Assembly: GCA_035574255.1 (NCBI GenBank)
Contig: DATLYZ010000102.1
Location: 47,194 to 111,193 of the forward strand
Reading direction: 5' to 3'
Origin: Gemmatimonadales bacterium
GTDB lineage: Bacteria; Gemmatimonadota; Gemmatimonadetes; Gemmatimonadales; GWC2-71-9
DNA: 64,000 bases
Part shown: one piece after another, positions 56,445-60,036 of the stretch
Numbering within the stretch: position 1 is the stretch's first letter
Layout: each line of letters begins with the position of its first letter
Program-made: the position numbers and the translations under genes
The notes under the pieces: generated by a model
The model's database searches: none
The model's input: the letters and a program-made list of their open reading frames with translations, nothing else
Told to the model about the DNA's origin: nothing

Positions 56445-57776
56445 TCACCCGTTCGCCGCCTCTCCCGCCCCGTAGAGCCGGGAGTGCCGGTAGCGTTCGA
56501 TGGCGAGCGTCCCCAGCAGCTTCACGAGCACCGCCAGGGGCACCGCCAGGAGGAGCCCCGCCAAGCCGAGCAGCGCCCCGCCGAACGCGAGCGCCAGCAT
56601 GATCACCACCGGGTGCAGTCCCACCGAGCCGCCGACGATCCGGGGGCCGGTGACGGACCCGTCGAGGAACTGCACCACGGCGAACACGATCCCCACCCGG
56701 AGCAGCCCGCTGCCCGGGGAGGGCATCGCCAGGGCCACGACCAGCGCCGGGAGGAGCGAGATCAGGAGCCCCACATAGGGGATGAGGTTGAACACGCCCG
56801 CCGTGACACCCAGGAGGAGGGCACTCGGCACACCGAGTAGGGCGAGGCCGATCCCGGTGAGGATCCCGACCAGCGTGGCTTCGAGGAGCTGGCCCCGGAC
56901 GAAGCGGCCCAGCGCGGCGTCGTAGCGTTCGAGGAACTCGACCGCGCTGGCCCGGGTTCCGGGCGGGATGAGGCCTTCGAGAAACTCGAGCAGCGGGCGC
57001 CAGTCGCGCAGCACGTAGAACGCCACGATCGGGGTCACGACCACGTAGCCCAGGAACCCGACCAGCGTGCCGACCCGGCGGGCAAAGGCCCACCCCCACT
57101 CCGCGACCCGGCTCAGGATCTCGTCGGCGTTCTGCTGGAGCAGCAGCGCCAGTTGCTGGGCGTCGAAGCCGCGGATCCAGGTTCGCTGCTCCTCGGTGAG
57201 AAACGCCAGGCCGGCGATTCGGGTGCGGAGCCCCTGGAGCGCCTCCAGCACCGTGGTCGCGAAGCGGGGGAACGCCTCGACCAGCGCCACCGCCTGGCTC
57301 CAGAGTTGCGGCGCGGCCAGGCTGAAGAGCGTGATGGCCACCCCCACCGGGGGGACGCACACCAGGACGATGGCGAGACCGCGGTTCACCCCGCGGCGTT
57401 CGAGCCGCGCGACGAGAGGGGCGAGCAGGTAGGCGACCGCGAGCGCCAGCAGGAAGGGGCCGAGGAGGCTCCCGTAGAGGTGGAGGGTCCAGATGATGGT
57501 GAGCAGGACGGCCGAGACCAGGACCATCCGTACTCCCGGCCGTCCGCGGAGCGGCCAGCCTGCGAAGAGCAGGAACGGCAGCACCACGGGCGGGACCAGC
57601 ACCTCCCGGACGCTCACGAGGAGCAGGACGAAGAGGGCGCCGGTGAGGATAGTGGGGAGTGGATCGCGGGCGGGAGCTTCCACGAGGCGCTCCAGTCGTG
57701 GGTTCGGGGTGGAGTCAGTCGGCGATGCACGGGTGGGGGAGGGCCGGCTCCCGGAAGCTCGGGTCGGATGGCTCAC
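56445..57776 (-). CDS. AI-2E family (PerM/YhhT-like) transporter
   Basis: 443 aa, about 8 TM segments, with PYVGLLISLLPALVVA and HPVVIMLALAFGGALLG strings typical of the family. The exact start is uncertain. Confidence 0.8.
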   Translation of the reverse strand: MSHPTRASGSRPSPTRASPTDSTPNPRLERLVEAPARDPLPTILTGALFVLLLVSVREVLVPPVVLPFLLFAGWPLRGRPGVRMVLVSAVLLTIIWTLHLYGSLLGPFLLALAVAYLLAPLVARLERRGVNRGLAIVLVCVPPVGVAITLFSLAAPQLWSQAVALVEAFPRFATTVLEALQGLRTRIAGLAFLTEEQRTWIRGFDAQQLALLLQQNADEILSRVAEWGWAFARRVGTLVGFLGYVVVTPIVAFYVLRDWRPLLEFLEGLIPPGTRASAVEFLERYDAALGRFVRGQLLEATLVGILTGIGLALLGVPSALLLGVTAGVFNLIPYVGLLISLLPALVVALAMPSPGSGLLRVGIVFAVVQFLDGSVTGPRIVGGSVGLHPVVIMLALAFGGALLGLAGLLLAVPLAVLVKLLGTLAIERYRHSRLYGAGEAANG

Positions 57777-57805
57777 TCGGGGGCCGCGCCGGTCGGCCCC
57801 CCGCT

Positions 57806-57846
57806 CCCCGTTCCGCGTTCCCGTTTACTGTTTGCCGTTTCCCGTG
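57806..57846 (+). repeat. heptad-phased array (GTTCCGC GTTCCC GTTTACT GTTTGCC GTTTCCC) overlapping the 3' end of the small membrane-protein gene
   Basis: GTT recurs at 57810, 57817, 57823, 57830 and 57837, giving spacings of 7, 6, 7 and 7. Confidence 0.75.
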
Positions 57847-57983
57847 AGGGCCCACCAGCGCACCAGGAGCACTCCGGTCAGGCCGAGCAGCAGATGGAGG
57901 GGGGCCCCGGCGGGTCCCAGCGGGAAGACGAAGGTGAACAGAATCCAGACCACGAGGCAGACCAGCGCGGCGACGAGCGTCAT
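57825..57983 (-). CDS. small two-TM membrane protein (lmo0937/DUF-type)
   Basis: 52 aa: MTLVAALVCLVVWILFTFVFPLGPAGAPLHLLLGLTGVLLVRWWALTGNGKQ. ATG at 57983. Confidence 0.45.
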   Translation of the reverse strand: MTLVAALVCLVVWILFTFVFPLGPAGAPLHLLLGLTGVLLVRWWALTGNGKQ

Positions 57984-58008
57984 GGGACGAGGGGAGACGA
58001 GGGACGCG

Positions 58009-58037
58009 TTGACGGTCACGGGACCGGGCTCTATCTT
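58009..58037 (+). promoter_or_regulatory. promoter candidate TTGACG-N17-TATCTT
   Basis: Read directly, at the start of a 335-nt AT-richer non-coding region upstream of the PTPS gene. Confidence 0.4.
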
Positions 58038-58043
58038 GAGAAC

Positions 58044-58248
58044 CGAAGCGGTACCGGAGTACCCGTTATTGAGCCAACAAGTCCGATGAAGGGCCCATAT
58101 ACTGATTCCGATGTCAGGCCCCCTGGGGGAAGACAGGAGTCTCGGTGAGGGCGCCACGCATGTTCGTCGGGCTTCAATAAACCCCTCCGGTATCGCCTCA
58201 CCTGTCTTTCGCGGGGCGTCGGCCGCACCGGCCGGCGCCTCGTTGTTC
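58044..58248 (+). ncRNA. candidate about 200-nt structured RNA: either an independent sRNA or a cis-regulatory leader of the PTPS-folE operon
   Basis: Bounded by the promoter candidate and a terminator-like hairpin. There is no SD in front of its only ATG (58111). It has local hairpins (GGTAC-CGGA-GTACC) and long-range complementarity between GGTGAGG at 58144-58150 and CCTCACC at 58196-58202. No class recognised. Confidence 0.3.
58215..58248 (+). terminator. intrinsic-terminator-like hairpin
   Basis: GGCGTCGGCC-GCACC-GGCCGGCGCC (10 bp including one G-U pair), followed by TCGTTGTTC. The opposite strand lacks a U-rich tail. Confidence 0.4.
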
Positions 58249-58320
58249 GAGGAGGCGGCCGCTTTCCTTGACACCGGTACCGGCCGGGCGATCTTCCACG
58301 CACGAGGAGGACGCCCACTG

Positions 58321-58734
58321 ATGCCGATCTCGTCCGTGACCCGCCGGGTCCACTTCAACGCTGCCCACCGGCTCTATAACCCGGCCCGGTCGGAGGAGTG
58401 GAACCTGCAGGTCTTCGGGGTCTGCAGCAACCCCAACTATCACGGTCACAACTACGAGCTGGATGTCACCGTGGAGGGGCGGGTGGATCCCGAGACCGGG
58501 TACGTGATCGACATCAACGTACTGAAACAAGTGATCGAAGACAAACTGCTGCGCCACCTCGATCACAAGAACCTGAATCTGGATGTGCCGTGGTTCCAGG
58601 ACCGGATCCCCACCGCGGAGAACATTGCGGTGGTGTGCTGGGAGGTGCTGGCCCCCGAACTACCGTCCGGCCGGCTCGTTCGGGTCCGGCTCTGGGAGAC
58701 GCCTCGCAACTATGTCGAATATGAAGGCCGCTGA
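58321..58734 (+). CDS. 6-pyruvoyl-tetrahydropterin synthase / 6-carboxytetrahydropterin synthase (PTPS/QueD family)
   Basis: [11 protein letters not shown] and [21 protein letters not shown]...LDHKNLN. GAGGAGG lies before ATG 58321. Confidence 0.85.
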
Positions 58735-59326
58735 AAGCCGGGCCCGCCGCCACGCCCGCCCGCACATCTCGTTCCAGGCGGAGGTCCGCTCCATTCTCGC
58801 CGCGTTGGGGGAGGATCCCGACCGGCCGGGGTTGCTGCAGACTCCGGAGCGCGTGGAGAAGGCGCTGCGCTGGCTCACCAAGGGCTACGAGATGACCGTG
58901 GCCGACGCGGTGGGCGACGCGCTGTTCGAGGAGCAGCACAACAGCATGATCCTGGTGCGGGATATCGAGCTGTACTCGCTCTGCGAGCACCATCTGCTGC
59001 CGTTCTTCGGGCGGGCCCACGTGGCCTACATCCCCAAGGGGCGGATCGTCGGCCTGTCCAAGCTGCCCCGCATCGTCGAGGTCTTCGCCCGCCGGCTCCA
59101 GGTGCAGGAGCGGCTCTCCGACCAGATCGCCGACGCCATCATGGAGGTGCTGGAGCCGCACGGGGTCGGCGTGCTGATCGAGGCGGTGCACCTCTGCATG
59201 GCGATGCGCGGCGTGGAGAAACAGAACTCCCGCACCGTGACCAACGCGGTGCGCGGGATCTTCCGGAGCGATATCCGGACCCGGGAGGAGTTCCTCCGCC
59301 TGGTGCACGGGCGTCCGGTCGAATGA
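58712..59326 (+). CDS. folE: GTP cyclohydrolase I
   Basis: [29 protein letters not shown] and HLCMAMRGV. Overlaps the PTPS gene by 23 nt. Confidence 0.92.
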
Positions 59327-60036
59327 CGCTGCTGGCGGGACGCCTGGCGGTGGTGACCGGGGCCTCGCGCGGGATCGGGCTCGCCACCGCCCGCGCCCTC
59401 CAGGCCCAGGGGGCCCGGGTGGTGCGGCTGGCGCGGAGTCTGGCCGACGGGAGCCAGGACGGGTTTCTCGACCTCGGCTGCGACCTCGCCGACGTGGCGG
59501 CGACGCTCCGCGCCGCCGCCCGGGTGCTCGAGCAGTGGGGGGTGCCCGATCTGCTCGTGAACAACGCCGGTCGCTTTCAGCTCAAGCCGTTCGAGGAGAC
59601 GGATCCCGCAGAGCTGGACCGGCAGTATGCGGTCAACGTCCGGGCGCCCTTCGTCCTGGCCCGAGCGTTCCTCCCCGCGATGCGCCGGTCCGGCCAGGGG
59701 ATCGTCGTCTCGATCGGCAGCACCTGCGACCATCTGGCCTTCCCCGAGAACAGCGCCTACACGGCGACCAAGTTCGGGCTTCGGGGGTTGCACGAGGCGC
59801 TGGCCGCCGAATACCAGGGCTCCGGGATCCGCTTCACGCTCATTTCCCCCGGCTCCACCGACACCGATATCTGGGAGCCGTTCGACCCCGAAGCGCGGGA
59901 GGGCTTCCTCGCGCGCGCCGAGATGCTCCGGCCCGAGGACGTGGCCGAAGCCGTCGTCTTTGCGGCGACCCGGCCGCCCGGCGTCACCCTCGAATGGCTG
60001 CGGATCGCTCCCACTCCGCCGCGGGTCTCCGCGTGA
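59323..60036 (+). CDS. short-chain dehydrogenase/reductase (possible sepiapterin/pteridine reductase)
   Basis: [13 protein letters not shown] and YTATKFG (the YxxxK). ATGA overlap with folE. The pteridine role is inferred from context only. Confidence 0.75.

Follow-up and report, generated by a model that had tools for sequence, protein, structure and literature searches.

The RNA encoded in the gap upstream of this PTPS-folE operon is probably a divergent 6S RNA (ssrS) of Gemmatimonadota that has so far gone unannotated, as judged from comparative analysis of its sequence and predicted fold. 6S RNA, a global regulator of transcription in most bacteria, mimics an open promoter and sequesters RNA polymerase. 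It is typically a rod of ~160-200 nt with an enlarged internal loop (PMC8414754; PMC12005410). The general Rfam model for the family (RF00013) appears to be blind to the form present in Gemmatimonadota, which are common soil bacteria, and its failure there would be the reason that no ssrS gene is annotated in these bacteria now. Text searches of the literature found no paper pairing 6S RNA with Gemmatimonadetes, Gemmatimonas or Gemmatimonadota; a candidate could still be present in the surveys of Barrick 2005 or Wehner 2014. If the assignment is correct, the Gemmatimonadota RNA adds a compact (149-nt), terminator-bearing variant to the 6S family. The alignments and covariance models produced here (A2, A3, R1 and R2) then provide a means of annotating 6S RNA in Gemmatimonadota, together with a product RNA (pRNA) sequence that can be tested.

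Conservation and boundaries of the gap RNA

The window (the whole 64,000-nt stretch of DNA that was analysed) comes from a genome of the Gemmatimonadales with a G+C content of ~70%. The gap, at positions 57984-58320, lies between a 52-aa ORF on the minus strand and the PTPS operon on the plus strand. It had been described as richer in A+T than its surroundings, and indeed the G+C content is 0.57-0.61 over 58000-58200 as compared to ~0.70 in the flanks. The 52-aa ORF (57825-57983, minus strand) is hydrophobic, is divergent from the RNA promoter and has no Pfam match. In many relatives a minus-strand gene start (CAT) is found 20-40 nt upstream of the -35 box of that promoter.

Homologous loci were collected in two sets. 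The genome set consists of the 80 loci of the genome collection whose PTPS is closest to that of the window, the proteins being 66-82% identical to it. All but one of these (79/80) come from Gemmatimonadales MAGs, the exception being a single, probably mis-binned MAG. This is L047 (JBLMWC010000098.1), labelled 'Bacillota bacterium', which carries a Gemmatimonadales-type PTPS (71% identity) along with the RNA and is likely to be a binning contaminant. The metagenome set consists of 80 further loci obtained by a pattern scan of metagenome contigs, and it includes some lineages whose PTPS is only ~50-57% identical. In the genome set, nhmmer recovered the gap sequence in 79/80 loci, with E-values down to 7e-38; the single locus that was missed has just 135 nt of upstream DNA. 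In the metagenome set, a covariance model built from close relatives (R1) detected one full-length copy of the RNA in each of the 80 loci, with scores of 71-167 bits. The original prediction had counted on conservation in relatives, and the RNA is found at 157/157 related Gemmatimonadota loci that have sufficient upstream DNA. On these alignments it is conserved far more than the neighbouring gene, with PTPS just 66-82% identical across the genome set.

The aligned loci show a fixed order of blocks: a promoter (P1), the RNA body, a linker, a GC hairpin with a U-rich tail and, in 38/77 loci, a second promoter (P2). Promoter, length and spacing counts were made on 77 genome loci. P1 (58009-58037, plus strand) has a -35 box TTGACG at 58009-58014, a 17-nt spacer and a -10 box TATCTT at 58032-58037. 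This element had been picked out from the letters alone, and in a consensus scan it is the sole promoter-like site in 57500-58800, where shuffled sequences give 0.1. The motif is kept as TTGAC-N17-19-TAnnnT in 77/77 genome loci, with the -10 box ending 6-14 nt before the closing stem of the RNA, and the predicted transcription start in the window is ~58044-58047. Close relatives have TATCTT as the P1 -10 box, and distant loci have TATTAT or TATAAT. Throughout the clade (58032-58037 and 58290-58295 in the window; L001-L080) the -10 boxes read TATCTT or CATCTT, which may represent a clade-specific -10 preference.

The predicted 3' end of the transcript is an intrinsic terminator at 58214-58250 (plus strand), with an 11-bp GC stem (58214-58224/58230-58240) that is followed by the tail CGTTGTTCGA. 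Both the GC hairpin (58214-58240) and its tail had been noticed at the outset, and the comparison with relatives adds that the stem covaries over its 11 pairs (e.g., GC/AU 52/24 at one pair in RNAalifold). The terminators of relatives have canonical U-tracts, e.g., TTTTTTGCCG and TTTTGTTC. The window terminator is absent from the output of a strict consensus scan because its T-run is interrupted. Between rod and terminator lies a linker (58197-58213, plus strand) that varies in both sequence and length among relatives; in the genome loci it is 2-34 nt long with no conservation of sequence. At one locus (L151:423-508), a long hairpin directly 3' of the RNA scores 46 bits against a plant microRNA precursor model. 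It probably represents an extended terminator or else a long inverted repeat.

Structure of the rod

In the consensus structure, the RNA body is a rod of 149 nt (58048-58196, plus strand) made up of a closing stem, an internal loop, a helix, a central bubble and an apical arm. The closing stem has 13 bp (58048-58060/58184-58196), and the second helix pairs 58068-58075 with 58170-58178 (UUAUUGAGCC / GGCuUCAAUAA). The two strands of the central bubble are 17 nt each. The 5' strand (58076-58092; AACAAGUCCGAUGAAGG) is nearly invariant and is the proposed template strand, while the 3' strand (58153-58169; GCCACGCAUGUUCGUCG) is conserved in length and variable in sequence. The apical arm (58093-58152) has a base helix GCCC/GGGC (58093-58096/58149-58152) and a terminal hairpin at 58119-58129. 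All of these elements are read on the plus strand. The length of the rod is 149-152 nt in 77/77 genome loci, and the G-C pairs on either side of the 17x17-nt bubble are invariant. In RNAalifold the 5' bubble strand is unpaired save for an invariant mini-stem of 2 bp.

Several results support this structure. The ~170 nt after P1 had been described as rich in hairpins, and the transcribed region folds far better than its shuffles (z = -4.8, with 0/200 shuffles as good). Covariation analysis, which the original prediction had proposed, gave compensatory changes in both sets of loci. For 77 sequences in an unfitted MAFFT alignment, RNAalifold predicted 54 pairs, 34 of them with compensatory changes. 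For the 80 metagenomic homologs, 93% of cells were paired as compared to 43-56% in controls slid by 1-3 columns, and 27/46 pairs had changed on both sides, values that 0/500 shuffles reached; this second alignment had been fitted to the model and is thereby biased towards the structure, and the unfitted alignment agrees with it. The many conserved G-U pairs (e.g., U-G in 76/77 sequences at one pair) fit the plus strand only.

A long-range pairing of GGTGAGG (58144-58150) with CCTCACC (58196-58202) had also been proposed. Both strings are present, but their pairing is specific to the window and was rejected as unconserved among relatives. CCTCACC falls mostly in the variable linker, with its first base, 58196, closing the closing stem, and in the consensus structure the partner of GGUGAGG is 58095-58103.

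The apical hairpin of the RNA has sub-threshold matches to the whalefall-1 motif (RF01762) in four loci (L083:380-416, L106:501-540, L123:828-864 and L051:37-73), with scores of 16-21 bits against a gathering score of 37. The resemblance may be due to chance, or whalefall-1 may represent part of a related RNA.

Comparison with 6S RNA

The 6S arrangement, two imperfect helical arms around a large central bubble, is present in the Gemmatimonadota RNA as the closing arm, the 17x17-nt bubble and the apical arm. Set against the ~160-200 nt of 6S RNAs, the rod measures 149 nt and the distance from predicted start to terminator is ~205 nt. E. coli ssrS (RF00013) is likewise a rod with a large central bubble flanked by G-C pairs, and its bubble is directly preceded by UGAGCC and followed by GGGUUCAA; its apical hairpin ends in GAGAAGCC where the Gemmatimonadota RNA has GGGGAAGAC. 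Three sequence islands are collinear with both the RF00013 consensus and E. coli ssrS: one (UGAGCC) borders the bubble on its 5' side, another (GGG(C)UUCAA) on its 3' side, and the third is the apical CAUGCCCC...GGGGAAGgC hairpin. In both alignments the 5' bubble strand (58076-58092) falls opposite the bubble of the known 6S RNA. There are also differences. The rod is 149 nt rather than 184 nt, mainly through a shorter closing arm, the sequence of the 5' bubble strand is another (AACAGGUCCG... in the Gemmatimonadota RNA), no E. coli-type release hairpin is evident, and the Gemmatimonadota RNA has its own intrinsic terminator hairpin.

Rfam was scanned with the whole window at gathering score, and permissively with the window RNA and with individual homologous loci. 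The whole-window scan at gathering score returned nothing, and permissive scans of the window RNA returned only junk (sX14, lncRNA or miRNA fragments). For RF00013, whose gathering score is 46.4 bits, there was no match to the window RNA even at E <= 10 and none to L094. Three other homologs were matched. L096:587-739 scored 21 bits (E 0.015) over model positions 1-187, where RF00013 shares the lowest E-value with BjrC68, a family with a short match at the terminator hairpin; L127 scored 18.6 bits over the whole model (positions 1-187); and L090 scored 15.1 bits (E 0.38) over positions 16-171. In all three the match is on the right strand, with boundaries within a few bases of those given by R1. 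All three scores are below half of the gathering score, short of formal membership in the 6S family. No other Rfam family recurs over the whole RNA body.

A reverse test was carried out with the annotated E. coli ssrS sequence (L081), which was searched using R1 and using R2, a covariance model built from a broader set. R1 did not find ssrS with default filters or with filters off, its top matches being short hairpins that skip the model core. With R2, the whole of ssrS is aligned and the three islands are in register, at a weak score of 10.8 bits (E 0.14 for the 10 kb and 0.003 for the gene by itself). This is the best long alignment in the 10 kb, and only two short hairpins score higher.

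There is a precedent for a 6S RNA that escapes the general model. Some 6S RNAs of the FCB superphylum (Fibrobacteres-Chlorobi-Bacteroidetes) are too divergent for it and need a model of their own. One such lineage-specific model is RF01685 (6S-Flavo), which in the Rfam scans gave no match to the window RNA. SRP RNA was also considered for the string CAGGUCCGG, which we take to resemble domain IV of 4.5S RNA; it was rejected, with no SRP family match and an apical hairpin that lacks the SRP loops.

The RNA could instead be a lineage-specific trans-acting sRNA unrelated to RNA polymerase, e.g., a protein sponge or a base-pairing regulator, with a 6S-like shape that is coincidental. We regard this as unlikely. 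This reading fits a gene that stands by itself, with a promoter and a terminator of its own, and it fits RF00013 scores far below the gathering score and a window copy that is unmatched. However, three independent homologs do match RF00013 on the right strand and with the right boundaries, in two cases along the entire model, and the three sequence islands occupy structurally equivalent places in E. coli 6S RNA. The near-invariant length and the highly conserved bubble strand suggest a large conserved partner. Base-pairing sRNAs are rarely so long, so rod-like or so widely conserved.

As a 6S RNA, the element would work as follows. P1 (58009-58037) would drive a transcript from ~58045 that folds into the 149-nt rod (58048-58196) and ends at the terminator (58214-58250). 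By analogy with the 6S RNAs of E. coli and B. subtilis, the rod would mimic an open promoter and bind RNA polymerase with the housekeeping sigma factor, and in non-growing cells the polymerase would be sequestered in this way. During outgrowth, the template for a short product RNA would be the 5' bubble strand together with the strand of the helix next to it, and as the polymerase copied them the helix would be unzipped and the polymerase released. The predicted pRNA template is 58065-58078 (plus strand), from which a product 5'-GUUGGCUCAAUAAC-3' would start opposite C58078. The template strand here is GUUAUUGAGCCAAC, and its positional equivalent in E. coli ssrS (L081) is ...CCCCUGAGCCGAU, within which we take the E. 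coli pRNA start site to lie. The pRNA of B. subtilis 6S-1 is GUUCGGUCAAAACUA (PMC12005410). The predicted GUUGGCUCAAUAAC resembles it, and both would start with a G a few nucleotides into the bubble. The likeness is a short one, 9/13 template positions without gaps, between a known pRNA and one that is only predicted. With the template strand forced unpaired, RNAalifold showed no conserved pRNA-release hairpin at the consensus level.

The downstream operon and the leader question

The PTPS-folE-SDR operon (58304-60036, plus strand) is a neighbour that lies outside the RNA. Its ribosome-binding site, GAGGAGG, is at 58304-58310, as had been seen before, and the PTPS ATG is at 58321. The three genes, all on the plus strand, encode PTPS (58321-58734; PF01242, 1e-37), GTP cyclohydrolase I (folE, 58712-59326; PF01227, 9e-76) and a short-chain dehydrogenase (SDR, 59323-60036; PF00106, 2e-42). 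Promoter P2 of this operon (58268-58296, plus strand) consists of TTGACA at 58268-58273 and GATCTT/ATCTTC at 58290-58296. The TTGACA had been noted together with what looked like a poor -10 box. The site is real, and it is conserved as TTGAC-N16-19-(C)ATCTT(CC) in 38/77 genome loci, the window included. At ~25 genome loci, where only 14-46 nt separate the terminator from the ATG, P2 is missing.

The RNA is found near folE in almost all loci. In L084, L096 and L100 it is followed directly by folE with no PTPS. In L087, L135, L094 and L152 a convergent gene of ~400 aa comes directly after the terminator and before PTPS/folE; that of L087, the locus for which Pfam was run, belongs to the Na/Ca-exchanger family (PF01699). 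Even where the convergent gene intervenes, folE is close by. L109, with neither PTPS nor folE within ~500 nt downstream of the RNA, is a possible exception. The persistent proximity to folE could indicate a functional tie to the operon.

The position of the RNA is another point of resemblance to E. coli ssrS, which is directly upstream of a folate-related gene, fau/ygfA, that starts 20 nt after it. E. coli ssrS and ygfA are co-transcribed by read-through. In lineages without P2, transcription of the operon probably relies on read-through from the RNA gene, in the same manner as that of E. coli ygfA (fau) after ssrS. The linkage of ssrS to ygfA, the gene for 5-formyl-THF cyclo-ligase, is known in several phyla (PMC9130861). 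The Gemmatimonadota loci would be a second, independent case of a 6S gene beside folate/pterin genes, and as such would bear on the unexplained ssrS-ygfA linkage. A bolder and rather improbable version is that a 6S-type RNA feeds the pterin/folate operon by terminator read-through, the 6S-folate linkage being a functional coupling of polymerase sequestration to the supply of folate or biopterin, or, more radically, that the element is not 6S RNA and is a new pterin-sensing regulatory RNA.

The original prediction offered two readings of the gap: either a small RNA is made there as a unit of its own and the operon after it has an independent promoter, or the gap is a terminator-controlled riboswitch leader. 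The sequence comparisons support the former, with a small-RNA gene that has a promoter and a terminator to itself: P1, P2 and the terminator are conserved, and in some loci the next gene is convergent. The riboswitch is disfavoured, with no antiterminator and no match to a known class. It is very unlikely that the element is a cis-acting leader in which the rod serves as an aptamer (for a pterin, folate or related ligand) or a protein target and the terminator at 58214-58250 attenuates PTPS-folE. Such a leader would be expected upstream of PTPS or folE, where the RNA is found at nearly all 157 loci, but a P2 between terminator and PTPS would mean that any switch is bypassed, yet the RNA is equally conserved in the 38/77 loci with this arrangement, including the window. 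A point in favour of a leader comes from the ~25 genome loci in which 14-46 nt lie between the terminator and the PTPS ATG and no promoter intervenes, so that there PTPS must be read through from P1. In other lineages (L087, L135, L094 and L152) the gene directly after the terminator is convergent and encodes a membrane protein, which speaks against a cis leader. The nearly invariant 5' bubble strand is what a ligand pocket could look like. The fold around it, however, is a long rod with a central bubble and has no junction or pseudoknot aptamer, and a 13-bp closing stem and rod shape are atypical of aptamers. Rod and terminator form two modules that covary separately, with a variable linker between them, and no antiterminator pairing was seen by inspection or with RNAalifold.

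Known riboswitches of the pterin, folate and queuosine group fit no better. With THF-II (the folE motif), THF-I, preQ1, ZTP and Moco riboswitches, the Gemmatimonadota RNA shares a place upstream of folE/PTPS-type genes and a terminator after the element. It differs from them in being much larger and rod-like, in having a promoter 3' of the terminator and, in some lineages, in having no co-oriented downstream gene. No preQ1, THF or ZTP consensus had been recognized in the gap when it was first described, and Rfam agrees: neither at gathering score nor at E <= 10 was there a match to THF, THF-II/folE, preQ1-I/II/III, ZTP or Moco.

The weakest alternative, an N-terminal extension of PTPS or a small leader peptide translated from ATG 58111, is effectively refuted and has next to no chance of being correct: in the window this ORF (58111-58734) is open and shares the PTPS frame, but the homologous ATG is in frame with PTPS in 30/71 loci and the frame is open in just 10, there is no ribosome-binding site at this ATG, which had been raised as a possible start and is part of the conserved RNA, conservation tracks base-pairing rather than codons, and the supposed ORF runs through a terminator and a promoter.

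De novo synthesis of tetrahydrobiopterin uses three types of enzyme, PTPS, GTP cyclohydrolase I and short-chain dehydrogenase, and the operon encodes one of each. The active-site string of the window PTPS is CSNPNYHGH (C-x5-HGH), which we take to be the eukaryote-type PTPS pattern and not that of QueD.
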